Below, piece after piece: positions 24,590-52,270 of a stretch of 60,983 bases of DNA. Where the stretch lies: positions 499-61,481 of the forward strand of contig JADFYJ010000016.1 of NCBI GenBank assembly GCA_015233115.1, in the 5' to 3' direction. A program made the translations under genes and the position numbers. Positions within the stretch are counted from its first letter, which is position 1. Every line of letters begins with the position of its first letter. Under the pieces are notes generated by a model. That model did no database searches and had not been told where the DNA came from. It saw only the letters and a list, made by a program, of their open reading frames with translations. This DNA comes from Candidatus Omnitrophota bacterium. Lineage in GTDB: Bacteria > Omnitrophota > Gorgyraeia > Zapsychrales > Zapsychraceae.

Positions 24590-24674
24590 TGGTTGATAGT
24601 TAATGGTTTTTAGTTTTTGGAAAAAGCAAATCTTTTCAACAACCAAAAACCAACAACCAACAACTAAAAACTAA
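24590..24674. repeat. Inverted pair of 7-mer arrays (GTTKTTR / YAAMAAC)
   Basis: gttgata gttaatg gttttta gtttttg ... caacaac caaaaac caacaac caacaac taaaaac, with a 16-bp spacer. Confidence 0.85.
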
Positions 24675-24685
24675 TATATGTTTAT

Positions 24686-25336
24686 TTATTCTTCTCCTGT
24701 TAATTCTCGAATAACTCCTGCTTCAGCCTGTTGTTTGACGTAAACTCCGTCATATTTTCTAAACCAGTAGTTCCGGCTAAAAAATTTTGCCCATCCTTCC
24801 GGAGCCCACCAAATTTGGTAACATTCCATTTTTTGACCGTTAACTTCAATAATATCAATGCCTTTCTTAACTGTTTTCATTTTTAAAAAATCTAAATTAT
24901 CAGACCTGACACCCCAAAATATCAAAGAATTTTCCTGGGACAACGCAAAACCCATCAGCCCTAATTTGGGGTTGAAATAAAAAGGCCGAGCATCAATGTT
25001 AATCACTTTTGATATAGACCGTCCTTTAAACATTCCAGTTATAACTATTTTATTTCCAATACGTTCCCCTTTGTACTCCGTATTATCCCCGGTGATTTTA
25101 ACAGCCCAGGACAAGGTAGCATAATTGGGATCTAAGACATATTCTTCATCTTCAACCCGATCTTTAATCTTACGCTGCCACTGAACCCGCCTGGACGAAT
25201 CCTTGAGCGGTCCGATGGCACATGAAAATTCATTAATGATACCTTTCGCGCTAAACGAGCGATAATGATAGGTCTTGGCCCACACCGGAACCGCGCAGGT
25301 CAGCATAAACAGCATTAAAAAGATTTTTTTTATCAT
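24686..25336 (-). CDS. Exported hypothetical protein
   Basis: Clear signal peptide (AVPVWA|K), 216 aa, beta-rich composition. Confidence 0.7.
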   Translation of the reverse strand: MIKKIFLMLFMLTCAVPVWAKTYHYRSFSAKGIINEFSCAIGPLKDSSRRVQWQRKIKDRVEDEEYVLDPNYATLSWAVKITGDNTEYKGERIGNKIVITGMFKGRSISKVINIDARPFYFNPKLGLMGFALSQENSLIFWGVRSDNLDFLKMKTVKKGIDIIEVNGQKMECYQIWWAPEGWAKFFSRNYWFRKYDGVYVKQQAEAGVIRELTGEE

Positions 25337-25378
25337 GGATTGACTTTTACCGAAAATAATTTAATACTAATGTTAAAT

Positions 25379-26200
25379 ATGAAACTTGAAAATTTATATA
25401 TTTCCTTGATCTGTATATTCGCATTAAGCGGCTGTAGTGTCAAAAACTATCTGTTCAATTATAGCCAGCCCAACCGCCCCCGTTTTGCCCAACTCAACAC
25501 GTTCACTCCTCCTTCAGAAATTAAAGATACGATCAAAGTCGTTTCCTATAATATCAAATTCTCGCGAAAAATCGAACTAGCCATCCAATTACTGACTACT
25601 GATCCGGACTTAAAGAACGCGGATATTTTATTATTACAAGAAATGGATGAAACCGGGGCACAAACAATTGCCCTCGCTTTAAAATGCAATTACGTTTATT
25701 ATCCAGCCGTGATCTACCCACGTAAAGGAAAAGATTTTGGTAATGCTATTCTTTCCAAATGGGAAATGTCTGATGATGAAAAAATTATTTTGCCAAACTT
25801 TTCCATCAATCAACGTGAACGGATAGCCGTTGGAGCGACAATCCAAATCCAAGATAAAAAAATCCGGGTCTATTGTGTGCATTTAGGAGTTTTTGTTAAA
25901 CCCACAGACCGTAAAATGAGAATTTCCCGGGTAGTGGATAGAATACCCGCGGACATAAAATATGCCGTTATAGGAGGAGATTTTAACAGTTTTACTAAAA
26001 AAGACCGCAAAGAAATCAATGAAGCATTCACAAAAAATAATTTTGATAACAGCACTTCCGGCATTGGGTGGACGCATGCCTTAGGCAAAAAAATCCAGCT
26101 CGATCATATCTACACCAAAGGCTTTACGGTTGTATCAAAAGGAAAAGTTATCAATAGAAAGCCGAGCGATCATTTGCCGGTATGGATAGAAATTAAATAA
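25379..26200 (+). CDS. Endonuclease/exonuclease/phosphatase-family lipoprotein
   Basis: Lipobox LSGC, VVSYNI, LLLQE, GNAILSK, VHL, GGDFN, LDHIY, SDHLPV. Start uncertain (25340/25370/25379). Confidence 0.88.
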   Translation: MKLENLYISLICIFALSGCSVKNYLFNYSQPNRPRFAQLNTFTPPSEIKDTIKVVSYNIKFSRKIELAIQLLTTDPDLKNADILLLQEMDETGAQTIALALKCNYVYYPAVIYPRKGKDFGNAILSKWEMSDDEKIILPNFSINQRERIAVGATIQIQDKKIRVYCVHLGVFVKPTDRKMRISRVVDRIPADIKYAVIGGDFNSFTKKDRKEINEAFTKNNFDNSTSGIGWTHALGKKIQLDHIYTKGFTVVSKGKVINRKPSDHLPVWIEIK

Positions 26201-28019: not shown

Positions 28020-28051
28020 TACTTTGTACTCTGTACTCTCTACTCTGTACT
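28020..28051. repeat. Solo 7-mer array (TACTCTG)
   Basis: tactttg tactctg tactctc tactctg tact, 7 nt after the dinB stop codon. Confidence 0.75.
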
Positions 28052-28058
28052 TTTTCAA

Positions 28059-29219
28059 TTATCCACGCTTTATCGCGCCTTCACCAAATTTATTTTTTAT
28101 TTTATCAACGGCCAAATGGACACGTTCTTTTTTAAGGCTGCCGGGTTTTTCAAACAAACTGTCTTGCACGAACAGGTCTTCAAAATTTGATACTTTAACC
28201 CCCAAAAGCCGAATCACTTCCCGCCCGCCGATAGAAGCATAAAATTCGTCAAACAATTCTTTCGCAGGGTGATAAATATCATCAAAATAATTAGTCCGCC
28301 GATCCAGGGTCCGCGCCCGAGTCACGGTTTTAAACCCACCGGTACGGATCTTTACAGTTAATGTTTTTCCTTTTAAATCATCCTGCCGTAAACGGTATGA
28401 CACTTTTTCAGCCAGCCAGGAAAGCGTCTGGTGCAAAATATTTATATCCCGGGTATCTTCATCAAACGTGTGCTCATTGCTCACGGATTTCACTTCATGA
28501 TCTAAAGTCACTTCCCGGTAATCGCGGCCATGAGCTAATTCATAAAGAGCCAGGCCGTGCTCCCCCAAGCGGTGATGCAATTGCTCTAAAGAAGCGTGCG
28601 CAATATCACCAACTGTAAACATGCCCAGCCGGTTCAATGTCTCTTTGGTTTTTTCACCCACGCCCCAAATCTTATTGACAGACAAAGGCCACAAAAAATC
28701 CAAAAGTTTTCCCGCGGTAATTTCTAATAGTCCATCCGGCTTGCAATAGTCTGAGGCAATCTTCGCGATCATTTTATTCGGAGCTATGCCGACCGAACAA
28801 TTGAGATTCAAATCTTTTTTTATACGGTCCTTAATAGTTTGCCCGACGGATAACGGCGTTTTCCATAAATGGTATGAGCCGGTAATGTCTAAAAAAGCCT
28901 CATCAATACTCACCGGTTCCACATCAGGAGTAAAATCACGCAAAATGGTAAACACTTGTTCTGAAACTTCGCTATATTTATTCATATCCGGATGCAAATA
29001 AAATCCTGCCGGACATTTCCGGTACGCCAAAGAAATCGGCATGGCGGAATGAACGCCAAATTTACGCGCCTCATACGAGCAAGTTGAAACGACTCCCCGG
29101 CCCTTCCCGCCCATTGGATCCGCGCCGATAATTACGGGTTTTCCTCGCAACGCGGGATTATCCCGCTGTTCTACGGCAGCAAAAAAGGCGTCCATGTCGA
29201 CATGAAGAATAAATTTCAT
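28059..29219 (-). CDS. dinB: DNA polymerase IV (Y family)
   Basis: HVDMDAFFAAVEQ, SYEARKFGVHSAM, SIDEAFLD, AKIASD..KPDG, WGVG. Confidence 0.96.
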   Translation of the reverse strand: MKFILHVDMDAFFAAVEQRDNPALRGKPVIIGADPMGGKGRGVVSTCSYEARKFGVHSAMPISLAYRKCPAGFYLHPDMNKYSEVSEQVFTILRDFTPDVEPVSIDEAFLDITGSYHLWKTPLSVGQTIKDRIKKDLNLNCSVGIAPNKMIAKIASDYCKPDGLLEITAGKLLDFLWPLSVNKIWGVGEKTKETLNRLGMFTVGDIAHASLEQLHHRLGEHGLALYELAHGRDYREVTLDHEVKSVSNEHTFDEDTRDINILHQTLSWLAEKVSYRLRQDDLKGKTLTVKIRTGGFKTVTRARTLDRRTNYFDDIYHPAKELFDEFYASIGGREVIRLLGVKVSNFEDLFVQDSLFEKPGSLKKERVHLAVDKIKNKFGEGAIKRG

Positions 29220-31528: not shown

Positions 31529-31790
31529 GTTGTTTGGGCTCGCTACGGGGATACGTCTGTGCTCAAACAGGCCTGGCGGCAAACTGCGCGCAGCCATATC
31601 CCCTCCGTTCGCACAAACAACGTTTACTTTAATCTCTATCACGTTTACACCCCTGTACTTTTATCCATCGTATCTCATTACGACGCTACCGTGTGGCACA
31701 TCCTGAGCAAAGTCGAAGGACTCAAACAGGCCTGGCGGCGAACTGCGCGCGCTCATATCCCCTCCGTTCATTCAAACAACGTTAATTTTA
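31529..31790. repeat. Structured element family B, tandemly duplicated at a 159-bp offset
   Basis: 31562-31631 and 31721-31790 match at about 61/70 nt. The first copy is closed by gttgtttg/caaacaac and ggggata/tatcccc stems. Confidence 0.85.
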
Positions 31791-31819
31791 CCTTTATCCC
31801 CTTTACATTTAACGCTTTT

Positions 31820-31880
31820 CATCCTTCGTCCCTCGTCCATCGTTTCACCACATACTACATACCACGCACTACATACTGCT
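31820..31880. repeat. Stacked 7-mer arrays (CRTCCHT x3, then CATACYA x4) overlapping the zwf stop codon
   Basis: catcctt cgtccct cgtccat ... catacta catacca cgcacta catactg. Confidence 0.8.
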
Positions 31881-33383
31881 TTTAGGTCCCCACGTCCCTG
31901 ATTGATAATTCGGAAAATCCTGGGGTACATTTTTATTCCAATATTGGATAATCGGGTCAACGATCGACCACATAACCTCCACTTCGTCTTGACGCGCAAA
32001 TAGCATGGCATCGCCCCTGATGCAGTCAATAAGCAAGCGTTCATAAGGCGGCAAGCGCCGGTCTTTGAACATAGCGTCATAATCAAATATCATGGGAACA
32101 GTTTGCGGCTGATTCAGAATGCCCGGGCGTTTGATATTTAATTGCCAGCAAATTTTTTCTTCCGGCTGAATCCGGAAGCTGAGGACATTGGGTTCTAATT
32201 CCCGGCATTGATTTCCGAATAAATGCAACGGCGGAAATTTAAAATGCACGGATATTTCCGTTTCCCGTGAGGCTAAACGTTTTCCCGCGCGAATATAAAA
32301 CGGCACGTCGACCCAGCGGCCATTATCTATAAAAAATTTTCCAGCAAAATAAGTCGGGATCTTGGAATCCGGCGCAACATTCGCTTCCTGACGATAACCA
32401 GGCACGTTCTGACCATTCACGACTCCCTGACCATATTGACCAGCTGTCATAAATTGCTGGATATGATCATCTGTGACAGGGCGGATATGCCGCAGGACAT
32501 TCACTTTCTCATCACGGATATATTCGGCTTCAAATCCTACCGGAGGTTCCATAGCGATTAAAGACAAAAGTTGCAAAGCATGATTCTGAACCACGTCCCG
32601 CATAATGCCCGACTGTTCGTATAATTTCCCCCTGCTCTCAATTCCGATATCTTCAGCGACGGTAATTGTGACATGATCAATATAATTTCTGTTCCATAAC
32701 GGCTCTAAAATACTGTTGCCAAAACGGAAAAACAAAATATTCTGGACTGTGTCTTTTCCTAAATAATGGTCCATACGATAGATTTGATCTTCGTCAAACA
32801 CTTTGGTCAATTGCTTATTCAGCGCAATGGCCGAGGCCCGATTATGGCCGAATGGTTTCTCAATTATGACCTTGCTGTTAGGCGCGTTCTGACACAATTC
32901 AACTTTGCGCAAGCGTTCAATGACTTCAGGAACCATGTCAGGATGGACGGCCAAATAATATATGGTGTGTTTAACTTCATGCGTGTGGGAGGCGTAAATA
33001 GCGGAGATCCGGTCACACAATTCACCGTAATGCCCAGCCTGGTTAAGATCATGGCTGTGATAATATAAATGCTTTAGAAAATCATTGGCTTTTTGATCAT
33101 CATACAATGGATTGCTGTTTTCACGAATAGACGCCAAAGCCATAGACCGGTATTCTTCATCCGTGATTTGACGAGAACCGACGGACAATACGGAAAATTC
33201 ATCGACCAGTTTTGCTTCAGCAAATAAATTATAAAGCGATGGGAGAAGCTTTTTACGGCTCAAATCGCCGGTTCCGCCAAAAATAACCAATACAAAAGGC
33301 GAGACTTTTTCCACTTGAGACTCATCGCAAGGCTCCGGGCGGATAATCTTTAGCATTGCGGGATCGAATTTAAATTCGACCAT
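31869..33383 (-). CDS. zwf: Glucose-6-phosphate 1-dehydrogenase
   Basis: [47 protein letters not shown]. Confidence 0.97.
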
Positions 33384-36674: not shown

Positions 36675-36703
36675 TTCAGTCTTCTCTCACCCATCGCTTT
36701 TTC

Positions 36704-36748: not shown

Positions 36749-36754
36749 TTTTTC

Positions 36755-39818: not shown

Positions 39819-39825
39819 AAATCTC

Positions 39826-40197: not shown

Positions 40198-40229
40198 TAT
40201 GGTCTCCTAATGTTTTGAACATTTGTATA

Positions 40230-40421: not shown

Positions 40422-40567
40422 TTTTGTATCTTACCACGAGCCTATTTTTTTCAAAACTGTTAATTAGTCTTAATATATTTATTGATAAATGGTAAAGAGG
40501 CTAAAGGTCTGTTACTTGGCGAAAATTGTGGCCGGTAAGTTATTTTGCATTCAAACTCTTTTTTAAA

Positions 40568-41725: not shown

Positions 41726-41731
41726 GTCTCA

Positions 41732-41773
41732 AGCATACCATGAAATAAGAAAAAGTCAATTTCTTATTTCATG
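41732..41773 (-). promoter_or_regulatory. Promoter with a 14-bp perfect inverted-repeat operator; probable leaderless transcript
   Basis: catgaaataagaaa-N7-tttcttatttcatg (41739-41773). TTGACT in the spacer, 16 nt, then extended -10 TGgTATGCT ending 6 nt before the ATG. Confidence 0.7.
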
Positions 41774-41787
41774 CAATAAAAATCCGT

Positions 41788-41828
41788 GAAAAAGCCCCTC
41801 TCCGACGATATCTCGAAGCAGGGCTTTC
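41788..41828 (-). terminator. Possible intrinsic terminator after ftsA
   Basis: Minus strand aaagccct-g-cttcga-loop-tcggag-a-ggggcttt followed by tt. Confidence 0.45.
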
Positions 41829-41853
41829 GCCAACACAGTATACGCACCGCGAT

Positions 41854-41889
41854 CTTTATCACCTTTACTCCGTTTATCACCTTTACCAC
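41854..41889. repeat. Solo 9-mer array (CTTTAYCAC x4)
   Basis: ctttatcac ctttactcc gtttatcac ctttaccac; 4 nt after the ftsA stop codon. Confidence 0.8.
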
Positions 41890-41893
41890 TTTA

Positions 41894-43138
41894 TTAGAAA
41901 TATTCCTGATACAAATCCAGCAGTTTCGAAGCGAAATTTTTGACGCCGCGGTTATCTTTACCTAAGCCGTCCCACAGGTGGGGTTTGGTTCGGAAACCCT
42001 GCATGGAAAGGCCGACTGCGGAAATGAGTTCTGAGACGTAAGCGGCTTGAGGGTGATGGATATGGCGCAAACGGCCGGCATTCGCGGGCGTAGCTATAGC
42101 GAGGCCGATCCGTTCAATGAGACCGGGCAAAAGTGAACCTCCGCCGATTACGACCATACCGTCAGACATATCATCGTATAAATGTTCTTTAAAAATAAAT
42201 TCTTTAAGCGCTGTATTATACGCTTCCACCTTTGGATCCAAAGCATCGAATATCGCGCTGCGTTTAATAGGCTTATAAGCATTGCTTTGTTTAATTAAAA
42301 TTTCTTCCTGCCCATCCTGCTCCCCTGCCACGACATAACCATGCGAACGTTTAATGCTTTCCGCCAAATCAAAAGATACGCCCAAGCCATCCGCGATGGC
42401 CTGGCTGAAATCATCGCCGCCCATGGCCATCTTGTCAAAAAATTTCAAAATGCCGTTTTTAAAAACTAATAAATTGGTGGATTGCGCGCCGATATCGAGC
42501 ACTGCACAGCCACGCATACTGTCCTGATCGCGCAAAACCACAGAGGCTGAAGCATAAGTATTAAACATCACATGGGCGATCTCATATCCGGCCTGGCTGA
42601 CTGCTTTAAATATATTTTTTAAACGGTTCGCGTTGACTAGAATCATGAGAGTATTAATCTCACATTTCCGGGCATACAAACCAATCGGGTTCAAAGCCTG
42701 ATTACTATCATCCACAACATAATGCTGCGGAATATCATGAATCAATTCTTCGTCGATCTTCGCGCTTAACATTTTCGCTAAATCGCGGAGTTTATAAAGA
42801 TCGCGCTGGGTGATCACTTTATGGCCTCTTTCCACTAAAGGTATTGTGGTGGAAGTCCGGCGGCTCACGACCAAATCGCTTCCTAATCCTAAATTTAATT
42901 CCTTAACCTTCACCTGTGCTTTTTGCGAAGCAGACTGAACAGCAGAGCGGATGCTTTCCGATAGTTCGGCTATATCCGTCACAGAGGCTTTCTTAAAGCC
43001 ATGCACTTTGCTGATCGAATCGCCGATCAATTCATACTCTCCGTCAACCGAAGAAGATTTTAAAATCGCGACCTTGATCCGGTTTGCGCCCAGATCCAGA
43101 CCGCAGAATATTTTTTGTTTTAAAAATTTTTTGACCAT
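41894..43138 (-). CDS. ftsA: Cell division protein FtsA
   Basis: GLDLGA..IK, HDIPQHYVVD, NPIGL, VLDIGAQST, GGDDFS..IA, GGGSLLPG; follows ftsQ. Confidence 0.92.
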   Translation of the reverse strand: MVKKFLKQKIFCGLDLGANRIKVAILKSSSVDGEYELIGDSISKVHGFKKASVTDIAELSESIRSAVQSASQKAQVKVKELNLGLGSDLVVSRRTSTTIPLVERGHKVITQRDLYKLRDLAKMLSAKIDEELIHDIPQHYVVDDSNQALNPIGLYARKCEINTLMILVNANRLKNIFKAVSQAGYEIAHVMFNTYASASVVLRDQDSMRGCAVLDIGAQSTNLLVFKNGILKFFDKMAMGGDDFSQAIADGLGVSFDLAESIKRSHGYVVAGEQDGQEEILIKQSNAYKPIKRSAIFDALDPKVEAYNTALKEFIFKEHLYDDMSDGMVVIGGGSLLPGLIERIGLAIATPANAGRLRHIHHPQAAYVSELISAVGLSMQGFRTKPHLWDGLGKDNRGVKNFASKLLDLYQEYF

Positions 43139-43140
43139 TA

Positions 43141-43947
43141 TTATCCTGCCTTGTTAACCATTTTTTTCGCGCCTTTGGGCTCAGGTTTACTTTTTAGAAC
43201 CGGTTCCTTAAAACGCAAATCAATATACTCTATCTGTTCCGGCTTTAAATCTTTTTGCTGAAGCATGATAGCCAGATCGCCGATCTTTTCCGGAATTTGA
43301 TCCCTGGATAAATAAATTAATAAATTATTACTTAACACCATCTCAACTTTAGATGTGTTGGTAACATCCATCGCTTTAATCGTCAAACTGGCCAAGCGCG
43401 GCTCCATGGCAAACTCCCGGAACAAAGCCACAGCCACAAAAGCGTTATCTGAATGCAGCCGGTATCCCAAAGTGATCGTCGGGCCAGAGACCTTCAATCC
43501 TTTAATCAAAGGCAATTTATCATTGCGCAATTGATCATAAAACAAAATATATCCATTACGATCCAAAGTGATCAACTTGCGGTTATATTCAAACTGCAAA
43601 TACGGATCACGTTTTTGTGCCGCGATCATAATTTCATCCGGAAAACGCCGCTCTACACGCAAGTTGGCCAATTGCGGATAACGCAATTCCAAACCCTGCT
43701 TTAAGCGCGGCATATCCACATCAAAAATACTTTTCCCGACCATGTAGGAAAAATCAGTTCTCTGGATAAAATCCAAAGACTGCTCTACTACCACCCGGCG
43801 GACTTTAAAATAAGGAGCGTGAACAACAAAATCTAACACAGATTTTGAAACCCAAAACCCCAAGCCGAACAAGACGATAAGTATGACGATATCCCGAATG
43901 AGAGCAACCGGAATTTTTTGTTTAGTTTTCTTTGCCGCTTTTCCCAT
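43141..43947 (-). CDS. ftsQ: Cell division protein FtsQ/DivIB
   Basis: Single TM, POTRA region (YFKVRRVVV, VERRFPD), C-terminal YIDLRF. Confidence 0.88.
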   Translation of the reverse strand: MGKAAKKTKQKIPVALIRDIVILIVLFGLGFWVSKSVLDFVVHAPYFKVRRVVVEQSLDFIQRTDFSYMVGKSIFDVDMPRLKQGLELRYPQLANLRVERRFPDEIMIAAQKRDPYLQFEYNRKLITLDRNGYILFYDQLRNDKLPLIKGLKVSGPTITLGYRLHSDNAFVAVALFREFAMEPRLASLTIKAMDVTNTSKVEMVLSNNLLIYLSRDQIPEKIGDLAIMLQQKDLKPEQIEYIDLRFKEPVLKSKPEPKGAKKMVNKAG

Positions 43948-44884
43948 ATGCCATCTCTGTTAATCTCAGACACAATGACTGAAAATCCATCCCTGATTGA
44001 CGAGCCGCTTTAGGCAGCAAGCTGGTCTCTGTGAAACCGGGTATGGTATTGATCTCTAATACATAAGCGTTATTATTCTGATCCAGCATCACATCGACCC
44101 GCGACACATCCGCGCAACCCAACGCCTTATGCGCTGACAAAGCCAGCTGTTGAACCTTAACCGCCACATCCTCGGGAATTGGCGCGGGAATTAAATAATC
44201 CGTCAAACCTTTTTGATATTTCGCCGTATAATCAAAAAAATCCCGTTTCGGCCTGATCTCAATGACTGGCAGACAGCTGTCTCCCAAAATTCCCACAGTT
44301 AATTCACGGCCCCGGATAAATCTTTCGATCAAAACCTGATCACCAAAAGACCATGATGATTCAATGGCACCGATCAACGCTTCTTTACTGACCGCGAAAT
44401 ACACGCCAATCGACGATCCTTCACATGCCGGCTTGACCACTAGAGGAAATAAACCGCCTAATTTTTTAATAATTTCATCTGCGGAAAAATCGTCGCCTTG
44501 ATGTAAAGAAATATAATCCGGTGACTTGATCCCGTTCTGAGTAAAAATCATGTGAGACAAGACTTTATTCAAAGATAACTGGCTCGCCTGAACGCCAGAA
44601 CCGGTATAAGAAATTGCCAATTCTTCCAAAATTTTCTGAATCTGACCATCTTCGCCGAGTCTACCGTGCAGCGCGATAAAAGCCAGATCAATTTTCTCAT
44701 CTTGGATTTGTTTAGTAATGACTCTTTCATCATTGGACACAATATCCACACCCTTAGCATCGCACCCTGCCGCCACCAAAGCCTCTAAAATAGCCTTTCC
44801 CGAACGCAAAGAAACGTCGCGCTCCGACGAATACCCCCCCATCAAAACACCTACACAACCGAATTTCTTAAATTTTTGATCCAT
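43922..44884 (-). CDS. ddl: D-alanine-D-alanine ligase
   Basis: GGYSSERDVSLRSG, ALHG..GEDG, EGSSIG, FDYTAKY, LEINTIPG.T..SL.P. Confidence 0.96.
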   Translation of the reverse strand: MDQKFKKFGCVGVLMGGYSSERDVSLRSGKAILEALVAAGCDAKGVDIVSNDERVITKQIQDEKIDLAFIALHGRLGEDGQIQKILEELAISYTGSGVQASQLSLNKVLSHMIFTQNGIKSPDYISLHQGDDFSADEIIKKLGGLFPLVVKPACEGSSIGVYFAVSKEALIGAIESSWSFGDQVLIERFIRGRELTVGILGDSCLPVIEIRPKRDFFDYTAKYQKGLTDYLIPAPIPEDVAVKVQQLALSAHKALGCADVSRVDVMLDQNNNAYVLEINTIPGFTETSLLPKAARQSGMDFQSLCLRLTEMAYGKSGKEN

Positions 44885-44892
44885 ATTTATTG

Positions 44893-45069
44893 AGTAGTAA
44901 ACGTGGTAAAGGTGATAAAGGTGCTAAACGCAAAAAAACAAAAAAATAAATTTTTTAACACCATTTGTGTTTAATGATGAGCCAAGATGCCATTGGTTTT
45001 AAACCATCGCTTTTCTCACCATTCGTTTTTTCCTTTACCACATTTACCGCCTTTACCTCCTTTACCACT
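44893..45069. repeat. Inverted pair of 9-mer arrays (GTGRTAAAS / CTTTACCAC)
   Basis: gtagtaaac gtggtaaag gtgataaag gtgctaaac (44894-44929) versus ctttaccac atttaccgc ctttacctc ctttaccac (45033-45068). Confidence 0.88.
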
Positions 45070-45075
45070 ATTAAT

Positions 45076-46437
45076 TTATATTTTTGCCAACACTTCTTTC
45101 CCTAATTTTGTGATATCTCCGGCGCCTAGGGTTAAAACCAGGTCTCCCGGACGCGCCAAACCCAAAATACATTCTAATAATTTATCACGATTGACGTAGA
45201 TTACTTCATTTTTTGTAATTTTTTTCATGGAGTCCACAAAAACCTCTGCGCGGATGCCTTCTATCGGCTGTTCACTGGCCGCGTAAACATCCGTAACCAG
45301 TAAAACATCGCATCCTTCGAAACATGTGAGGAATTCATTCCATAAATGCTTCAAACGGGTGTACCGGTGCGGTTGAAACACGGCCACCACTCTTTGGATC
45401 TTCTCCCCCTTTAGCGAACTGGCTACTTGGCAGGTGGCTTTAATTTCCGTCGGGTGATGGGCATAATCATCGTAAACCGTTATGCCGTTTTTTTCTCCGA
45501 TCAGCTGAAATCTCCGCTCAACTCCGCGGAAACTTTCCAAGGCCTTTACAATATCGTCAAATTTAATGCCAATTTCCAAACAGACAGCCATGCACGCCAG
45601 CGCGTTGATAATATTATGCCGGCCCGGAACATTTAAAATAACCTGCCCCAAAACTTCATTATCCAGCACGCAATCAAACTGGCTTTGCAGTTTATTGATC
45701 CATACATTCTCCGGATGGATTAAATTTTCTTTATTAAGCCCAAAAGTAACAAATGACCGGCCGCTTTTTTTCGCGATTGCCATTAAATTCGCGTCATCCC
45801 CGCAGAGAAAAATCATGCCCTGTTTGCTAGTCTGTTCTAAATATTGTTGATACAATTCACCGATATGATCGAGATCCCGGTAAAAATCCATATGTTCCCG
45901 GTCCATATTGGTGATCACGGAATAATCCGGATGAAAAAATAAATGAGTGCCATCGCTGTCATCCACTTCTGCGACAAAATAATTTCCTTCTCCCAATGCG
46001 ATATTAGTCGAAAGCGTACGGACAATCCCGCCGATAGCGCCTGTAGGCGATAAGTTATTCACCTGCAGAGTATGCAATATCATCGACGAAGTGGTTGTTT
46101 TGCCATGCGCGCCAGTCACCGCAATATTTTTGTAATCTTTCATCAATTGCGCCAACAACTGCGCGCGGCGCAGAACTGGAATATTTTTTTCCCTAGCAAC
46201 AACGATTTCCGGATTATCCGCTTTGATCGCTGTGGATACAGCTACGAAATCCGGATTTCCCACATGGGACGCCTGATGCCCAATGGTAATCTCTGCCCCC
46301 TGCTTGCGCAGCATCACAATCATGTCATTTTCTTTCACATCCGACCCCGTGACTTTATATCCCGCCGCCAAAAGTAATCCAGCCAACCCACCCATCCCTA
46401 TACCGCCAACACCTACCAAATGATAATGCTGTTTCAT
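45076..46437 (-). CDS. murC: UDP-N-acetylmuramate-L-alanine ligase
   Basis: GVGGIGM, GAHGKTTT, DDYAHHPTE, FQPHRYTR, GAGDI. ATG 46437 overlaps the upstream TGA (ATGA). Confidence 0.96.
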   Translation of the reverse strand: MKQHYHLVGVGGIGMGGLAGLLLAAGYKVTGSDVKENDMIVMLRKQGAEITIGHQASHVGNPDFVAVSTAIKADNPEIVVAREKNIPVLRRAQLLAQLMKDYKNIAVTGAHGKTTTSSMILHTLQVNNLSPTGAIGGIVRTLSTNIALGEGNYFVAEVDDSDGTHLFFHPDYSVITNMDREHMDFYRDLDHIGELYQQYLEQTSKQGMIFLCGDDANLMAIAKKSGRSFVTFGLNKENLIHPENVWINKLQSQFDCVLDNEVLGQVILNVPGRHNIINALACMAVCLEIGIKFDDIVKALESFRGVERRFQLIGEKNGITVYDDYAHHPTEIKATCQVASSLKGEKIQRVVAVFQPHRYTRLKHLWNEFLTCFEGCDVLLVTDVYAASEQPIEGIRAEVFVDSMKKITKNEVIYVNRDKLLECILGLARPGDLVLTLGAGDITKLGKEVLAKI

Positions 46438-47228
46438 TTTCTCTCCAAATAATCGACCCAATTGTCATTTAGTCGCTTGATACTGCGCACCTGAGGATAT
46501 ACTTTTTCCAGTACCGGTTCAAAAGAAAATCCTTCCTTAAGTTTTTTACACAGCCGAAAAAATCGGACATCTTCGTATTCATTAATTAAAAAATTAACCG
46601 CACTGGCAGATTCTTCGTAAAACAAATCCACCTCTGTTTTGGATATCTCATGGGTTAACTGCATTTGTGATAATTGTGCCAAAGTTTTAAATCGTTTATT
46701 TTTTATCGCCTCTTTCACATATTGATCTGAACCATACCGTTTAGCCTTTTCCTGATTCATCGCTACACCTTCTTCCAGCCATAAAGGAATTTCCGTCTCA
46801 AACCCGATCACTTCCCGAAAAATAATGTGCCCTAATTCATGAGGCAGGACCGAATCAAAAAAACCATTTTCAGCCGGAAAGGTGCGAATTGTTTTATCCT
46901 TTGCGTGCGCCACTCCGCTCGACCATGGAAAACCTTTTAAAGCCGCCACATAGTCATCATGGTTCGGGTAAATATAAATTTTGGCCCGATCATCCAAAGT
47001 CCAGGGCACTTCACTGCTCATCCCCAAATTTTCTTTAATCGTTCTAAAACACTCTTCTGCCGACTCTTGAACAGTTTTAACCAAATCATAAGGAACATTT
47101 TTGTAATAAACTAAAAAATGCCGCGTCCGTTCTACAGACCAGCCTTCAGGAACGTCCACCCGCGCCCATGCCTGGATAGTCATGGAAAAAAATAAAATTA
47201 ATAATAAGATTAAACTGCATTTATACAT
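46434..47228 (-). CDS. Exported zinc metallopeptidase (peptidase MA / gluzincin-like)
   Basis: Signal peptide, TRHFLVYY, HELGH and downstream PLWLEEGVA. Confidence 0.8.
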   Translation of the reverse strand: MYKCSLILLLILFFSMTIQAWARVDVPEGWSVERTRHFLVYYKNVPYDLVKTVQESAEECFRTIKENLGMSSEVPWTLDDRAKIYIYPNHDDYVAALKGFPWSSGVAHAKDKTIRTFPAENGFFDSVLPHELGHIIFREVIGFETEIPLWLEEGVAMNQEKAKRYGSDQYVKEAIKNKRFKTLAQLSQMQLTHEISKTEVDLFYEESASAVNFLINEYEDVRFFRLCKKLKEGFSFEPVLEKVYPQVRSIKRLNDNWVDYLERK

Positions 47229-47253
47229 TTAGATTAATAATTTTGATTGTTAG

Positions 47254-47721
47254 TTAAAAATTAAAATGTCCTTGCGGATGTTCTTTTTTGATTTCCTCTT
47301 TAATAATTTTAATAAATTCACAAGCTGATTCTAAAGCGCTTTTCGCGTCAGTCATAGAAACATGAAACTTCCAAGGCTCATAAATAAAATTATTACGGTT
47401 TTTACGCATATAATCAAACTTCTCAGTCAACGCTTTATATCTATTCCCTAAAAAGTAGGACGCAAAACTAACAACTGTTTTATGCTGGAAATTAGTTGTA
47501 GGCCGAAAACCTTTCACAAACACAAAGGCCCTTGCCGCATGAAGCATCGCGGTATAAGCCGTTTCGTAAGCATGCCCTTCATCAATCGAAAGCAATTTTT
47601 CTGAAACCTGAAGATTTTTTTCAGCGCTGTTCATGACTTTCTCTATCTGATCAAAGCCTATCTTCTCCGGCTTTATCAGATTCTTTTCTGTATATTCATT
47701 TAAAAATTCTTTAGAGGTCAT
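47254..47721 (-). CDS. HEPN-domain protein
   Basis: AY.AM.HAARA, H..V and R..RN...Y (RxxxxY variant). Overlaps the upstream MNT gene by 11 nt. Confidence 0.8.
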   Translation of the reverse strand: MTSKEFLNEYTEKNLIKPEKIGFDQIEKVMNSAEKNLQVSEKLLSIDEGHAYETAYTAMLHAARAFVFVKGFRPTTNFQHKTVVSFASYFLGNRYKALTEKFDYMRKNRNNFIYEPWKFHVSMTDAKSALESACEFIKIIKEEIKKEHPQGHFNF

Positions 47722-48283
47722 CTTTGCTTCCTTTAATAAATATTTTCTTGCCCTTTATGACCTCTAAAACAAAAGAATTTTTTTTCTTTTTCTCTTTTTG
47801 ATACTCGCCATTTGTATAACGGGTATAATTAATTTCTTTAAACAATTTTTTCTCAAGATTACTAATATTGATCACCAACTTATCTTCATCAATGTCATCG
47901 CCGATCAAAAATATATCTATATCGCTATCCTGCCGCTCTTCCCCCTTAGCAAAAGACCCGTATATAAAAGCAGCCTTGACTCCGTTTATCTTAATTAAAC
48001 AGTCTTGTACCAGTTTTATCACGCCTGCTGTTTTATAAACGATATTTTTTAATTCTTCATAAACCGGATTTTGCTTATTCAAATAAAAAAGCTTAATGTT
48101 GCCAACCTCCCGCACATTAAGGATCCCTAAAAAAATAAGTTTCTTAATCTCCCGATGCAGAGTCCCTACAGACATTTTGTGCATCGACGCCAGTTGTCTT
48201 GTGTAGTACTCATTTCCCGGATTGCTAAAAAAAGTATTTAATAAAACTTGCCGCGTTTTTGATCCTAATAGACCAGACAACAT
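47711..48283 (-). CDS. wHTH plus minimal nucleotidyltransferase (MNT) protein
   Basis: N-terminal HTH (SKTR..LL..FF.NP..EYY.RQLA) and IYGSFAKG.....SDIDIF (GS...DxD). Confidence 0.88.
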   Translation of the reverse strand: MLSGLLGSKTRQVLLNTFFSNPGNEYYTRQLASMHKMSVGTLHREIKKLIFLGILNVREVGNIKLFYLNKQNPVYEELKNIVYKTAGVIKLVQDCLIKINGVKAAFIYGSFAKGEERQDSDIDIFLIGDDIDEDKLVINISNLEKKLFKEINYTRYTNGEYQKEKKKKNSFVLEVIKGKKIFIKGSKDDL

Positions 48284-48285
48284 AA

Positions 48286-48332
48286 TGTTCCCCTTTTGAG
48301 AACAATTGTATCAATTTTGAGAACATAATCAA
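48286..48332 (-). promoter_or_regulatory. Promoter with tandem operator-like boxes for the MNT-HEPN pair
   Basis: TTGATT, 16-nt spacer, TACAAT (extended TGa). Two 19-bp boxes, tgttccccttttgagaaca and tgtatcaattttgagaaca, spaced 21 bp apart. Confidence 0.6.
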
Positions 48333-48350
48333 TAAATATTGATGATTTTT

Positions 48351-48398
48351 CGTCCCTGCCTACCGGCAGGCAGGCTTCATCCCTCGTCCCGCATCCCT
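48351..48398. repeat. 7-mer array (CRTCCYK) interrupted by the 20-bp palindrome cctgcctaccggcaggcagg
   Basis: cgtc[48355-48374]ctt catccct cgtcccg catccct, abutting the murG stop codon. Confidence 0.8.
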
Positions 48399-49465
48399 CA
48401 CCTACAAATAAATATTTCCCTCGCCAATTTTTTCGCTGCGTCAGGCTGATAAATACCCGCTTCGCTTAATTGCGATAAACTGGAACTGCCTTGTAAAAAT
48501 CCTTCAATAGCGCCGCTCACTTCTCCAGAATTAAAATATTTTTCGTCAATCACTTTCGCCCAGCCGGCTTTAGCCAAGGCTTGAGCATTAAATTTTTGAT
48601 GGCCGCCGGCATGCGGATAAGGAATTAATACTGATGGACGTTTAAACATGGCTAATTCAAAAACAGTCATAGCGCCCGAACGTCCAATAACTAAATCCGC
48701 CATGGTATAAAGTTCCGCCATTTTGTTGGAAAAATTGAATACTTGCACGGGGATTCCGGTCTTCAGATATCGATCCTTAACGTCTGAAAAATCCTTGTAT
48801 CCGCTGACATGAATTATTTGGAAAGAATACTGGGCTTTTAACTTTTCCAGGATGCTAACCAAGTCACGATTAAATTTCTGACTGCCCTGACTTCCGCCAA
48901 AAATCAAAATAGTTTGACGATTCGCATCCAGACCATACTCAGACAAAAGATCATTTTTGCTTTTGGCGGGAAATTGAATCGTGACCGGACAGCCGGTAAG
49001 AACAGTTTTTTGCGGCGGAAAATAAAGGGTGCTTTCCTGAAAACTGACAGCAATTTTGGAAACCAAATACGCTAAAATTTTATTCGCTTTCCCAGGTTTC
49101 ACATTTTGTTCATGCAATAGACACGGGATTCTTAAAATCACGGCAGCTAACACTATGGGAAATGCGCTATAACAACCAAACCCGCAGACCACATCCGGCT
49201 TGATATCATAAAGTTTTTTTCCAGCTCTAAATACCGCCGTCATCGCCCGGCCCATGGCACTCAGTATCTTAATTGGATTTAAAGACGTGATTCCCCGGCT
49301 GTCAATATTAACCACTGTGTAGCCATCATCTTCAATCAATTTCTGATTTTTCCGGAAGTCCCCGCAAAATATAACCCGATGGCCCACAGCCGTCAACTCC
49401 CGCGCCGTTGCCAGCGCCGGAAACAAATGCCCACCCGTCCCCCCGGTAGCTAATACAATTTTCAT
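48398..49465 (-). CDS. murG: Undecaprenyl-PP-MurNAc-pentapeptide GlcNAc transferase
   Basis: GGTGGHLFP, HEQN..PG.AN, GGSQGS, RSGA.T..E, HQ..NA. Start moved to ATG 49465. Confidence 0.96.
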   Translation of the reverse strand: MKIVLATGGTGGHLFPALATARELTAVGHRVIFCGDFRKNQKLIEDDGYTVVNIDSRGITSLNPIKILSAMGRAMTAVFRAGKKLYDIKPDVVCGFGCYSAFPIVLAAVILRIPCLLHEQNVKPGKANKILAYLVSKIAVSFQESTLYFPPQKTVLTGCPVTIQFPAKSKNDLLSEYGLDANRQTILIFGGSQGSQKFNRDLVSILEKLKAQYSFQIIHVSGYKDFSDVKDRYLKTGIPVQVFNFSNKMAELYTMADLVIGRSGAMTVFELAMFKRPSVLIPYPHAGGHQKFNAQALAKAGWAKVIDEKYFNSGEVSGAIEGFLQGSSSLSQLSEAGIYQPDAAKKLAREIFICR

Positions 49466-49486
49466 TAAATTTATGTTTTCGGTTGT

Positions 49487-49612
49487 TGTAGGGGCGATCT
49501 CCCGATCGCCCGCATCAATAAAATTGTTTTTCAATCATTCGTGTCTAAAATCAATTGTTTATAACAAAAAAACGACAATTTTGTAACGGGAGATCAGGAG
49601 ATCTCCCCTACA
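49487..49612. repeat. GTAG-type REP doublet (REPIN-like)
   Basis: tGTAGgggcgatc-tccc-gatcgcccg (49487-49512) and the inverted copy tGTAGgggagatc-tcct-gatctcccg (49612-49587), with a 74-bp spacer. Confidence 0.88.
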
Positions 49613-49619
49613 GATCTGG

Positions 49620-50708
49620 TTATAAGTCTTCTGTTCTCGAAATATTCAATAACAATCCTACAGCAACCATATTAAAAATTAAGGCTGAACCTCCATAGCT
49701 GATAAAAGGCAGAGGCAATCCTTTAGTTGGCAATGCTCCCATGCTCACACCGACATTTACCATAGCTTGTGTCCCCAGCATCGCGACAATACCGCTGGCC
49801 AGATAATAACCGAACGGGTCTTGAGTCCGTTTGGCAATCCGCGCGCCTTGCCAAACAAAAATTATAAACAGCATAATCACCGTAAAAGCGCCTAACAATC
49901 CCAGTTCTTCTCCGATAATTGACATAATAAAATCTGTGTGCGCCGCAGGTAAATAAAATAATTTTTGAACACTTTTTCCCAAGCCTAATCCGAATATTCC
50001 GCCCGAACCAAACGCGATGTGCGATTGGGTTAATTGAAAACCCGCGCCCAAACTGTCTTTCCATGGATCCAAAAATGCCACCATGCGCCGCATACGATAA
50101 GGTTCAAATTTAATCAACACAATAATTGCACCCAACGCCATAATAGCGATCGACATCACATGGCTTAATTTCGCGCCGCCGATAAACATCAGCACCCACA
50201 CCATAAGACCGATCAACACCGCATTCCCCATATCTGGCTCTTTTAATATGAGTAAACAAGTTATTCCCATGACCATCATTAAGGGAAAGAATCCCCTGCT
50301 CAAACTGCGGATCTCATTTTTCTTTCTGGCTAAAAAATCTGCCACATAAATCAGCATGGTTAATTTGGCTAACTCCGAAGGCTGAAAATTGATCGGCCCA
50401 ATCTTAAACCACCGGCGGGCGCCAAAGCTGGATTTTCCTAGATGGGGGATTAAAACCAGGACTAATAACACAATCGAAATCAACATCATAGGCTTGGCAT
50501 ATTTCCGAAGTTCCCGGTAGTCGATCAGCATAACCGGTATAGTGGCGATCACGCCCATTAATACAAATAATAAATGCCGGGTTAAAAAATATGTAGAATT
50601 TTTTAATTCCTGCTGAGCATAAATCCCGCTGGCACTATAGATCATAATGATCCCAATGCACAAAAACAAAATCACCACCATAGCTAAAGAAACTCTGAGT
50701 TCTTTCAT
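49620..50708 (-). CDS. ftsW: SEDS peptidoglycan polymerase FtsW
   Basis: GARRW, FQPSELAK, EPDMG, FLDPW, LPAAHTDFI...GEELG, LPTKGLPLPFISYGGS. Confidence 0.96.
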   Translation of the reverse strand: MKELRVSLAMVVILFLCIGIIMIYSASGIYAQQELKNSTYFLTRHLLFVLMGVIATIPVMLIDYRELRKYAKPMMLISIVLLVLVLIPHLGKSSFGARRWFKIGPINFQPSELAKLTMLIYVADFLARKKNEIRSLSRGFFPLMMVMGITCLLILKEPDMGNAVLIGLMVWVLMFIGGAKLSHVMSIAIMALGAIIVLIKFEPYRMRRMVAFLDPWKDSLGAGFQLTQSHIAFGSGGIFGLGLGKSVQKLFYLPAAHTDFIMSIIGEELGLLGAFTVIMLFIIFVWQGARIAKRTQDPFGYYLASGIVAMLGTQAMVNVGVSMGALPTKGLPLPFISYGGSALIFNMVAVGLLLNISRTEDL

Positions 50709-50724
50709 AATAAATAAAATAATT

Positions 50725-50857
50725 TGGTTGATGGTTTTTGGTTGTTGGTTTTTGGTTAAAAAAAACGAATAATTGTTTGGTTGTTAGTTTTGGATAATTG
50801 TTTTTTGTGTTGATTAAAATATTATTCGTTTTTCAAAAATTAAAAGCCATAAACTTA
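50725..50857. repeat. Degenerate inverted pair of 7-mer arrays (same family as 24590-24674)
   Basis: gttgatg gtttttg gttgttg gtttttg, internal 13-bp IR aaaaacgaataat/attattcgttttt, and a decayed right arm caaaaat taaaagc cataaac. Confidence 0.7.
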
Positions 50858-50876
50858 TATAATCAATTTGTTAATT

Positions 50877-52163
50877 TCATAATTCATTAACAATTCTTTT
50901 GAATTCTTCCCCCCGATGTTCAAAATTATTGAACATATCAAAACTCGCGGTCATCGGACTTAACAAAACACAATCTCCCGGCTGAGCTAATTTCCGGGCG
51001 CAATCGATTGACTGCTTAAAATCCTCTGCCAGAGTCAACGGCACTACATCAGCAAAAGCTTCTTTTATTTTCATCCGGATCGCGCCCATGGCGACCACAT
51101 GTTTGACTTTGCGGCTCACCAAATCACGAAGCGGAGTATAATCCAAATTTTTATCCGACCCGCCGCAAATCATAATAAACGGCTTGGTCATATTTTTAAT
51201 CGCCCATTCCCCGGCTTCAACGGTCGTAGATTTGGAGTCATTAATATAATCAACCCCGTCTAAATTCCTCACCCATTCCAGCCGGTGTGGGATCCCCTTA
51301 AACTCATGAAATACTTCCCGGCACACATCCGGTTTAATATTTAAAATTTGCGCCACTTTCATAACTGCCAATTGATTATCATTCAAAGCCTCATTGGGCG
51401 TAACCGCGTATTTATCATAAAATTCTATTTTCGACGGTAAACGCTGGGCCAGGCCGCGCAGACGGGGAGAATTCCCGCTTAATACCGCGAATTCCTCAGC
51501 CGTATGATTTAAAAATATCTGCGCTTTGGCGTCAAAATATTCATCAATGTCTTTATGCCGGTCTAAATGATTAGGATTAAAATTGAGAATGACCCCAATA
51601 TAGGGCTTAAAACCTTTGAACCCCTCGCTCCCAGGTTTCATCAAAGATTCCATCTGAAACGAACTGACCTCCAACACCACATAATCATTTTTATTCACAT
51701 CTATCGCGTACTCACAAAAAGGCGTTCCCACATTGCCGCACAAACACGCTTTGTATCCGGCTTTTAATAAAACATTTTTAATCAAATTAACCGTCGTGGT
51801 CTTGCCATTACTGCCCGTGACCGCAATCACCGGAATATCGCAAAACTGAAACGCGAATTCAATCTCCCCCAATACCGGAATTTTTTTCTCATGCGCCCAT
51901 TGAACCGGCTGTGCATCATAACGCACTCCGGGGCTGAGCACCACCAAATCCGCATCCTGCACAAATTCTTGAGTATGCCCGCCCCATTCCAGCTCTATCC
52001 CGAAATCTTTAAAAAACTGATGCACATCCGCGCCAAATTTCTCAGGCATGGCTGTTTCAGAAATTTTCACACAAGCCGCGCCAGCTCGCTTAGCCAATTT
52101 AGCAGCAGCCAACCCGCTTTTCTGGGCACCTACAATAACCACTCGTTTATTGATTAAATTCAT
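50877..52163 (-). CDS. murD: UDP-MurNAc-L-Ala-D-glutamate ligase
   Basis: SPGV, TGSNGKTT, EVSSFQ, HLDRH, HRLE, NDSKST, SP..ASFDMF.NFEHRG. Confidence 0.96.
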   Translation of the reverse strand: MNLINKRVVIVGAQKSGLAAAKLAKRAGAACVKISETAMPEKFGADVHQFFKDFGIELEWGGHTQEFVQDADLVVLSPGVRYDAQPVQWAHEKKIPVLGEIEFAFQFCDIPVIAVTGSNGKTTTVNLIKNVLLKAGYKACLCGNVGTPFCEYAIDVNKNDYVVLEVSSFQMESLMKPGSEGFKGFKPYIGVILNFNPNHLDRHKDIDEYFDAKAQIFLNHTAEEFAVLSGNSPRLRGLAQRLPSKIEFYDKYAVTPNEALNDNQLAVMKVAQILNIKPDVCREVFHEFKGIPHRLEWVRNLDGVDYINDSKSTTVEAGEWAIKNMTKPFIMICGGSDKNLDYTPLRDLVSRKVKHVVAMGAIRMKIKEAFADVVPLTLAEDFKQSIDCARKLAQPGDCVLLSPMTASFDMFNNFEHRGEEFKRIVNEL

Positions 52164-52176
52164 AAGTTAATCCTGA

Positions 52177-52270
52177 TAGTATGTGGTTCGTAGTATGTCG
52201 TATGTAGTAAAACAACAAAACGAATAATTCGCATTTTGCCACATACTACATGCCACATACCACGTACTGC
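52177..52270. repeat. Inverted pair of 7-mer arrays (TRGTATG / CATACYA)
   Basis: tagtatg tggttcg tagtatg tcgtatg versus catacta catgcca catacca cgtactg, with a 30-bp spacer. Confidence 0.88.

Follow-up and report, generated by a model that had tools for sequence, protein, structure and literature searches.

Why should the junctions of an essential cell-division and cell-wall operon carry short arrays of tandem 7-, 8- and 9-nt units, some of them mirrored around an AT-rich spacer? The question is raised by a stretch of 60,983 nt from a Candidatus Omnitrophota bacterium (GenBank assembly GCA_015233115.1, contig JADFYJ010000016.1; G000:C7:499-61481), hereafter the window, by which we mean the whole stretch of DNA that was analysed. 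It belongs to an assembly of 2.39 Mb in 37 contigs (~41% G+C, 91% complete), its genes lie nearly all on the minus strand, and at 41.9-60.8 kb it holds the division and cell wall (dcw) cluster with ftsI, murE, murF, mraY, murD, ftsW, murG, murC, ddl, ftsQ and ftsA. An earlier note on this DNA had described the arrays and taken them for the ends of small gene cassettes that inserted at operon junctions and have since been mostly emptied; the observation itself is confirmed herein, and the interpretation is partly supported. In our analysis the arrays are on balance probably the terminal inverted arms of species-specific small hairpin elements, which would form one family with cassettes that carry a gene for a four-helix-bundle protein (PF05635) and would mostly be gene-less derivatives that were copied as such.

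Abundance, pairing and placement of the arrays

Arrays were collected across the genome with Tandem Repeats Finder at one setting (period 6-10, at least 2.8 copies), and genes were called as open reading frames (ORFs) of at least 70 aa, taken longest first with greedy resolution; the thresholds for arrays and for pairs are our own choice. The 576 rows obtained in this way merged into 566 arrays, compared with 25 and 22 in two simulated third-order Markov genomes of the same size, and included 253 arrays of heptamers, 228 of octamers and 51 of nonamers. Intergenic arrays make up 440 of the 566, despite ORF calls that take in 90% of the bases. Their density is ~2.0 per kb in co-directional (394 in 197,763 bp) as well as in convergent intergenic sequence (24 in 12,255 bp), and 0.85 per kb in divergent intergenic sequence (21 in 24,620 bp). 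Arrays are found at 277 of the 1827 co-directional junctions (15%), where the median gap is 203 nt versus 28 nt at the junctions without them.

Among neighbouring arrays no more than 4 kb apart, 144 pairs are inverted, 13 are direct and 241 are unrelated. The inverted pairs include 124 with a spacer of at most 450 nt, which is 24% G+C and has a median length of 154 nt, the lengths peaking at 100-200 nt with few at 300-450 nt. Per arm the median is 4.25 units and 32 nt (4-5 units in 200 of the 248 arms, with a range of 3 to 9), which gives an element with a median length of 217 nt. When folded and scored against mononucleotide shuffles, the 124 pairs reach a median z of −6.9, and in 116 of them one arm is paired with the other over at least 60% of its extent. 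An ORF of at least 70 aa is absent from 122 of the 124. We also considered inverted pairs around larger genes as cassettes and rejected them, since the 20 such pairs, against ~9 direct ones at similar distances, look like independent neighbours, the exception being two four-helix-bundle cassettes among them. How easily neighbours can deceive is illustrated at G000:C22:73882-75085, where hisB lies between a gene-less element of the GTATGT family and a broken four-helix-bundle cassette of the same family, so that two independent elements mimic an 'enclosed' gene.

The placement of the arrays relative to the adjacent genes is strongly non-random. At the 104 co-directional junctions that hold two arrays, the first arm lies a median of 4 nt after the stop codon (overlapping it in 34 cases and lying within 20 nt on either side in 86), and the second arm lies a median of 18 nt ahead of the next start (82 at 10-30 nt and 6 at less than 10 nt). 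The distance on the stop side is the shorter one in 86 junctions and the longer one in 17 (p = 3e-12), and the residual flanks sum to a median of 23 nt, which is about the size of an unoccupied junction. In our reading the elements occupy what were ordinary short spacers, and are pressed to the stop codon while the translation-initiation region of the next gene is left free. Either insertion preference or selection may have produced this placement.

Within the window, a combination of Tandem Repeats Finder and sequence reading bears out the claim that at least six unit sequences share one architecture: there are six families, each with 3-5.6 imperfect units, namely the TGGTT-type, TACTCTG, GGACGAG/GGGAYG-type and GTATGT 7-mers, the GTGACnTT 8-mer and the TGGTAAAGG 9-mer, and all copies lie between protein-coding genes. 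Five inverted pairs had been listed, and four of them fold arm-to-arm when their sense strand is scored against 100 dinucleotide shuffles. The first is a hairpin element of the TGGTT family, in which an arm that is GT-rich on the plus strand (24590-24620) pairs with 4-5 complementary units of CAACAAC/CAAAAAC (24637-24674), 11 nt below the stop of the ORF at 24686-25336 (fold 24590-24674, z −5.9). The other three are complete gene-less elements. One, of the GTGAC 8-mer family (40230-40423, with arms at 40230-40284 and 40390-40423 around an AT-rich spacer), lies 146 nt past the stop of the AAA/DUF4143 gene and 32 nt ahead of the start of a response-regulator gene (fold 40230-40421, z −6.7). A second, of the TGGTAAAGG family, fills the murC-ddl junction (44893-45069, arms 44898-44928 and 45032-45068, z −7.6) and carries an inner motif, AAAACGAATGGTGAGAAAAGCGATGG, on the side of the stop codon, and a third, of the GTATGT family, fills the mraY-murD junction (52177-52270, arms 52177-52209 and 52239-52267, z −4.5). 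The fifth candidate, at 50725-50857, was rejected as a pair: it consists of a single TGGTT-family arm on the start-codon side of the murD-ftsW junction (50723-50757) and a 14-nt inner inverted repeat (z −3.5), and the sequence at ~50830-50857 is not an arm.

The six solo arms that had been noted are likewise present. A TACTCTG arm (x4.6, 28020-28051) lies 7 nt below the stop of a Y-family polymerase gene (28059-29219), and the glucose-6-phosphate dehydrogenase gene (31869-33383) has its TAG stop provided by a GTATGT-family arm that overlaps it (31850-31877); a TCCATCG arm (x3.1, GGACGAG-type in the mRNA sense, 31822-31843) is stacked behind that arm. A 9-mer arm of CCTTTACCA (x5.6, 36703-36752) begins 2 nt below the stop of the gene at 36755-38146, with the next start 28 nt away, and is preceded on its inner side by CCCATCGCTTTTT, i.e., the inner motif on the opposite strand. 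Another 9-mer arm, CTTTATCAC (x4.7, 41854-41894), abuts the ftsA stop, and an arm of GGGAYGM-type heptamers in the mRNA sense, with a small internal hairpin (48351-48395), lies 2 nt below the stop of murG. The distances to the upstream stop at eight sites of the window are 11, 7, overlapping (31850-31877), 2, 0, 7, 2 and 7 nt, which agrees with the proposed proximity to stops, and three sites are exceptions: the element at 40230-40421 (146 nt), the arm at 50725-50857 on the start side, and the arm at 31822 behind another arm. An Rfam scan of the window matched a tRNA and none of the arrays. Over positions 36000-53500, neither promoter-like sites (52 versus 40.9 ± 6.8 expected) nor terminator-like sites (22 versus 18.8 ± 4.4) were enriched, and no canonical terminator was found at the elements.

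Two repeats of other kinds occur in the same stretch. Between the rhomboid and glucose-6-phosphate dehydrogenase genes, at 31540-31800, a unit of ~90-120 nt with a G+C-rich core (CAAACAGGCCTGGCGGC...CATATCCCCTCCGTTC) stands in two tandem copies, and more copies were found at G000:C8:24233-24326, C6:3601-3688 and C6:44802-44832. The unit has no match in Rfam and represents a small dispersed repeat or RNA distinct from the arrays. The ftsW-murG gap (49535-49619) holds another type of hairpin, CTGTAGGGGAGATCTCCTGATCTCCC, whose GTAG head resembles classical repetitive extragenic palindromic (REP) elements.

That the arrays are insertions at operon junctions, as had been supposed, is borne out by comparison with relatives. 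We located murD in 40 relatives, fetched the dcw cluster for 20 and measured its junctions; all are distant, the nearest (G001, same genus) having a MurD only 73% identical. The gene order of the cluster is conserved in the 20 relatives, and junctions of at most 25 nt without arrays are found in 17 of 20 for mraY-murD, 16 of 20 for murD-ftsW and 15 of 18 for murC-ddl (−15 to +8 nt in 14 of the 18), compared with gaps of 114, 168 and 191 nt in the window, respectively. In G001 the same three junctions are empty (42, −4 and −14 nt). Wider gaps that hold no array of this kind do occur in a few relatives, for example in L008 (178 and 225 nt), L007 (200 nt) and L013 (414 nt). Comparable arrays were seen only in G001 among the relatives, and there at two other junctions: TAAAGGTGG (x6.4) directly after murG and AAGGTCA (x3.6) at ftsQ-ftsA, a gap of 2 nt in the window. 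In G002, TACAGCT (x4.1) lies at murD-ftsW. The arm sequences have a similarly narrow distribution, with a three-unit pattern of the octamer family, GTTACTNN, matching 172 times in this genome and never in the 40 relatives, and a three-unit RTATGTN pattern matching 94 times here, once in G001 and never in the other 39, while reversed control patterns gave 0-1 matches. Since the arm patterns are essentially confined to this genome and the relatives' junctions are mostly empty, the population is specific to one species-level lineage. Metagenome contigs searched with MurD yielded best relatives 46-54% identical, and no strain-level filled or empty alleles were among them.

The three-unit GTTACTNN pattern was also found in more than 115 viral contigs, where arrays in both orientations within 600 nt were seen at 5 of 80 fetched loci (L215, L228, L235, L258 and L274). 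Similar repeat-armed hairpins may thus ride on viruses.

Arm families, interiors and four-helix-bundle genes

Within the main families the ends of the elements have the same polarity when read from outside to inside (GTATGT 90/90, GTTACT 98/98, GTGAC 36/38), and align to a single consensus per family, e.g., TAGTATGTAGTATGTGGTATGTCGTATGTAGTA followed by an A-run. Cores of 5-6 nt are at least 90% conserved, and the one or two positions between cores 50-70%. Judged by these alignments, each arm family is one fixed sequence of ~32 nt and not a generic microsatellite. An arm is no more complementary to its own partner than to the arms of other elements (0.912/0.901, 0.893/0.887 and 0.882/0.827 in three comparisons, none significant), and each arm is thus held to its family motif and does not co-evolve with its partner. 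The left arm is purine-rich in 117 of the 124 pairs. A polarity rule covering all families was rejected, since the TGGTT family and several cassettes of the relatives run the opposite way, and we kept polarity only as a within-family property.

The interior of the elements is shared as well. Inside one arm an A-run is followed by a motif near AAAGCGATTGGTG, often in two or three copies, and the narrow form of this motif occurs in 93 of 248 inner flanks versus 4 of 248 outer flanks. A broader pattern finds it on one side in 73 elements, on both sides in 18 and on neither in 33, with a background of 9% in 10,326 intergenic windows. Among elements between co-directional genes, 58 have the motif facing the stop codon and 9 have it facing the start codon (p = 7e-10), a bias that appears in the GTTACT (32:1), GTATGT (18:5) and GTGAC (6:1) families alike. 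Among the spacers, 81 pairs are similar at E ≤ 1e-4, versus 3 for shuffled spacers, and 58% of the similar pairs are within the same arm family (31% expected), the remainder being cross-family. The similarity across families implies that the elements have a common interior with different arms, and the likeness of the spacers that the gene-less elements were most likely copied as gene-less.

The only gene found inside arms is that for a four-helix-bundle protein. The genome has three PF05635 loci, all outside the window, and all three lie immediately between inverted arms of families that are present in the window: C2:56956-57312 between TGGTT-family arms, C32:70307-70660 between GTGAC-family arms, and C22:74709-75076, which is broken by a frameshift and two stops, between GTATGT-family arms. 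All three are co-oriented with their neighbours. At the C32 cassette, 40 nt beside one arm match several gene-less elements of the GTGAC family (E 1e-6 to 1e-3). In five relatives, 11 of 12 PF05635 genes lie within inverted periodic arrays, each with another unit, as judged by eye and without a statistic; in G001 the inverted pair is on the upstream side of the gene only. One of the cassettes of G011 (L115, G011:C64:24791-28084) has arms of CCTAAAT/CCCTAAA-type heptamers that resemble plant-type telomere repeats. The association of such arrays with four-helix-bundle genes, which the earlier note had mentioned for other bacteria, is thus found in this genome and its relatives, while the GxxExxY genes mentioned with it are not found in this genome (PF13366, TIGR04256). 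We conclude from these sequence relationships that the gene-less elements and the four-helix-bundle cassettes are probably one family, in which the gene-less form would have arisen a few times and then been copied.

Solo arms share the preference for the upstream gene, with a median of 17 nt to the gene on the outer side and 106 nt to the gene on the inner side, and among 162 of them traces of a partner arm were found on the inner side in 50 cases and on the outer side in 33. All six in the window are C/pyrimidine-rich on the plus strand, as had been noted, i.e., purine/G-rich in the mRNA sense. Genome-wide this is a tendency only, with 97 purine-rich and 69 pyrimidine-rich solo arrays on the sense strand. 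As general markers of cargo, solo arms were rejected, since the genes on their inner side are of ordinary size (median 291 versus 306 aa).

Three defence-like insertions occur in the conserved dcw cluster of the window: Abi_2 (54782-55678) in the murE/murF interval, for which 19 of the 20 fetched relatives were measured and gave junctions of −17 to +18 nt; an MNT-HEPN pair (47254-48283) flanked by murG and a Peptidase_MA gene; and an AAA/DUF4143 gene (40568-41725) after ftsA. Solo arms do stand upstream of the latter two, at 48351-48395 and 41854-41894, in keeping with what had been reported, and none of the three insertions is bracketed by an arm pair. In G001 (L001, 6473-6960) the TAAAGGTGG arm after murG is followed by a 128-aa DUF559 gene with a Vsr-like endonuclease fold, which is bracketed by a G+C-rich inverted repeat of its own, CCCCTCCCCTTGTGGGAGGGG. 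It is suggestive, though from two cases only, that the small genes acquired at the murG junction differ between the two species and stand behind an arm in both.

Origin and movement of the elements

The homology of the spacers, the arms shared with four-helix-bundle cassettes, the fixed polarity and the array-free junctions of relatives all fit a reading in which the elements move, or once moved, as whole units and in which the gene-less form probably derives from the gene-bearing one. Several points weigh against it. The assembly is in 37 contigs and the gene calls are crude. The most similar pair of spacers is 80% identical over 196 nt and near-identical copies are absent, and thus no recent movement was caught. 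A comparison of flank words revealed no element-specific target-site duplication (longest common word 4.54 nt between an element's own flanks and 4.35 nt with the flanks of other elements), although all flanks have an A/T-rich TTTTAAAA-like context and a duplicated conserved A/T-rich target would escape this comparison. Arms that stay ~90% alike while spacers drift are equally compatible with a use of the arms by the host. In the assembled 91% of the genome, no four-helix-bundle gene belongs to the largest family (GTTACT, 49 pairs), and the one of the GTATGT family is broken. The dcw clusters of G011 and G019, genomes with 4 and 7 such genes, are free of arrays, and the number of genes therefore does not predict the number of gene-less copies. 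Lastly, no transposase or other enzyme was tied to the elements, and we know of no catalytic activity of the four-helix-bundle fold. We commit only to a family that is hairpin-forming, orientation-specific, formerly or currently mobile, and related to four-helix-bundle cassettes.

On this reading the elements lodge in the 20-30-nt gaps of co-transcribed genes, after or over the upstream stop, leaving ~18 nt before the next start and with an orientation fixed relative to host transcription. Our leading guess is that an oligomeric four-helix-bundle protein would recognise the phased cores of the arms, and that host replication or repair would act on the extruded hairpin. Recognition of phased cores by a ring protein is known from TRAP, and Avd relatives of the four-helix-bundle protein partner with reverse transcriptases; the genome has one partial reverse transcriptase gene, at a contig end. 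Most arms here have four or five conserved cores with one or two free positions in between, an arrangement that would be expected if a ring-shaped protein held a single strand. S23p of Xanthomonas is described as a homopentamer (PMC4990558). Taken further, the arms may be docking sites of oligomeric four-helix-bundle proteins of the intervening-sequence (IVS) protein/Avd family, and protein and arms together an unrecognised mobile cassette without a DDE or HUH transposase, whose gene-less offspring would multiply in a REPIN-like manner, in one orientation and right after stops, possibly via an RNA or single-strand intermediate. This extension, drawn by analogy, is offered tentatively and is in our view unlikely.

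Somewhat less plausible again is that the arrays are sites used by the host, such as phased binding sites of an RNA- or DNA-binding regulator, or hairpins between cistrons that stabilise or decouple the mRNA, as has been suggested for TAACTGA repeats and for REPs, and that their spread would reflect selection. The conservation of the cores while variable positions and spacers drift would suit this, as would arms that are held to a motif and not to a partner, the strict orientation and the ~18 nt kept clear ahead of starts, and translational regulation is what MacGregor 2015 (PMC4679880) proposes for heptamer repeats in the part of the paper that discusses them. However, the same junctions between essential cell-wall genes are mostly tight and array-free in the 20 relatives and the families are essentially confined to this species, several unrelated units in one architecture would need several regulators, and neither an enrichment of promoter- or terminator-like sites nor a match to an Rfam family was found.

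The retention of the cassette orientation by the gene-less elements (motif 58 versus 9; the three four-helix-bundle genes co-oriented), the visible decay of one of the three genes (the frameshift and two stops), and the subterminal sequence that the C32 cassette has in common with gene-less copies could also mean that each locus is the remnant of a cassette that arrived with its gene, the gene having later been lost or having decayed on the spot, which is essentially what the earlier note had in mind with cassettes 'emptied or decayed'. This we find improbable. No remnant of a four-helix-bundle gene was detected in any of the 122 gene-less spacers (tblastn with the three local proteins; the best hit is no better than the reversed-protein control at E 0.05), and across the genome PF05635 at E ≤ 10 adds just two sites, both weak. 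Most spacers are 100-200 nt long and few reach 300-450 nt, and their mutual homology fits one or a few deletions followed by copying, so that ~120 independent losses in place are much less likely than the copying of gene-less elements.

About as improbable, to our mind, is that the IS200-like Y1 (HUH) transposases of the genome act on single-stranded hairpins and move the elements in trans as REPIN-like repeats. Hairpins, the lack of a target-site duplication and an orientation bias are typical of single-strand HUH transposition. The elements here form hairpins with a strong orientation bias, no duplication specific to them was found, and the genome has six PF01797 genes of 186-262 codons (G000:C2:14562-15062, C37:1020-1724, C32:67699-68352 and three more). 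However, no array lies within 1.5 kb of five of the six, and several are accompanied by repeats of another kind, the C2 copy with a 35-nt palindrome on both sides and the C37 and C32 copies adjoining runs of a GACACCATTTTTT-type repeat; the Y1 gene was thus rejected as the array-flanked gene, a place that is taken by the four-helix-bundle gene. Finally, simple sequence repeats arising by local polymerase slippage, without copying between sites, would account for the variation in unit number (3 to 9) and are cited as a hypothesis for heptamer excess in the relevant part of Rehm et al. 2015 (PMC4692102), but are very hard to reconcile with non-identical units within arrays, an order of variable positions shared between loci, 144 inverted versus 13 direct neighbours, common inner motifs and spacers, and a fixed polarity.

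Relation to known repeat systems

Read as copies of gene-less hairpin elements, the arrays share features with several known systems. Like transposable elements of the miniature inverted-repeat type (MITEs), the elements are short, gene-less and AT-rich inside, have terminal inverted repeats in many copies, and have ends in common with a rarer gene-bearing form; they differ in that there is no transposase-encoding parent and no demonstrable target-site duplication, and in that their arms are internally periodic. REPINs, which Bertels and Rainey reportedly described in 2011, are said to be hairpin doublets in hundreds of copies, with a RAYT gene flanked by the repeats. Here too there are hundreds of short, species-specific, hairpin-forming intergenic doublets and singletons, and a low-copy gene flanked by the same repeats. 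However, REP arms are single imperfect palindromes and their gene is a Y1 transposase, whereas the arms here are phased tandem units and the gene is that of a four-helix-bundle protein.

Short tandemly repeated repetitive (STRR) heptamers of cyanobacteria were reportedly described by Mazel in 1990. TAACTGA heptamers are known from Beggiatoaceae, cyanobacteria and Bacteroidetes (MacGregor 2015, PMC4679880) and, in the part of that study describing the repeats, are likewise abundant intergenic direct heptamers in 2-6 copies, mixed with other heptamers and absent at the same junction in close relatives. They are, however, mostly single arrays just upstream of starts, with one indirect repeat in 170 sets, whereas the arrays here form inverted pairs and abut stops.

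For the link to PF05635 the closest parallel is the 23S rRNA IVS of Coxiella burnetii, in which an S23p/PF05635 gene lies in the loop of a ~28-bp terminal stem (PMC4990558). According to the part of that report that treats the IVS, its 5' stem contains tandem GACAGAT heptamers in a copy number that varies between strains, its ORF is decaying, and it is excised by RNase III (PMC4990558). The terminal inverted-repeat stem (arms here have a median of 32 nt) and the optional PF05635 ORF in the loop are common to both, while the Coxiella IVS is inside an rRNA gene and the elements here lie between protein genes, are ORF-less in 122 of 124 cases and occur in a genome in which no RNase III gene was found. 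In our literature search no paper linked gene-less periodic hairpins to PF05635 cassettes, the nearest being the remark on Coxiella IVS heptamers (PMC4990558).

RNase III genes were searched in the 91%-complete genome with PF14622, TIGR02191 and PF00636, none of which gave a gene, and PF14622 was matched in only 2 of the 41 genomes searched in the taxonomic order, this one included. Excision by RNase III can thus not be assumed in this organism, which weakens a model of IVS-like processing for this genome. Should the gene truly be absent, operon transcripts with long stems may be easier to tolerate, and the lineage would process rRNA and double-stranded RNA without a classical RNase III. By itself this does not account for the expansion of the elements, since arrays are missing from relatives in which the gene is likewise lacking.

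The convergent pairs of GGGAATC heptamer arrays in Xanthomonas and the heptamer arrays of Nostoc (Rehm et al. 2015, PMC4692102) are the most similar repeats. In the sections of that paper that describe them, they are, as here, tandem 7-nt units, mostly at least 4 in number, 89-93% intergenic, with 70-75 convergent pairs per genome; the upstream ORF is 28 nt and the downstream one 160 nt away, compared with 17 and 106 nt for our solo arms; and they vary between close relatives. The same sections interpret one G-rich unit as a G-quadruplex former, whereas we find at least six units of 7, 8 and 9 nt, mostly free of G-runs: GGG is missing from the main units (GTATGT, GTTACT, GTGAC and TGGTT) and occurs only in the minor GGGAYGM-type arm at 48351. 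Nor do these sections of Rehm et al. contain a four-helix-bundle link, a shared inner motif or an orientation rule.

The intergenic heptamer arrays reported since ~1990 from cyanobacteria, Xanthomonas and Beggiatoaceae still lack an accepted explanation, and the PF05635 proteins, first discovered in rRNA intervening sequences, have so far no known function. This genome would present the two as one system at an extreme, with few cassettes and more than 100 gene-less copies, which reach junctions inside an essential cell-division and cell-wall operon in a single lineage. The fixed arms, the orientation rule and the inner motif provide handles for binding and mobility assays and, if true, the suggestion that the arms are docking sites would account for the excess of heptamer repeats that has been noted in bacterial genomes for decades. 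While the repeat class itself has already been published for Xanthomonas and cyanobacteria, the octamer and nonamer versions, the fixed family sequences, the position tight against the stop with ~18 nt left ahead of the next start, the shared inner motif and the strict orientation are new.

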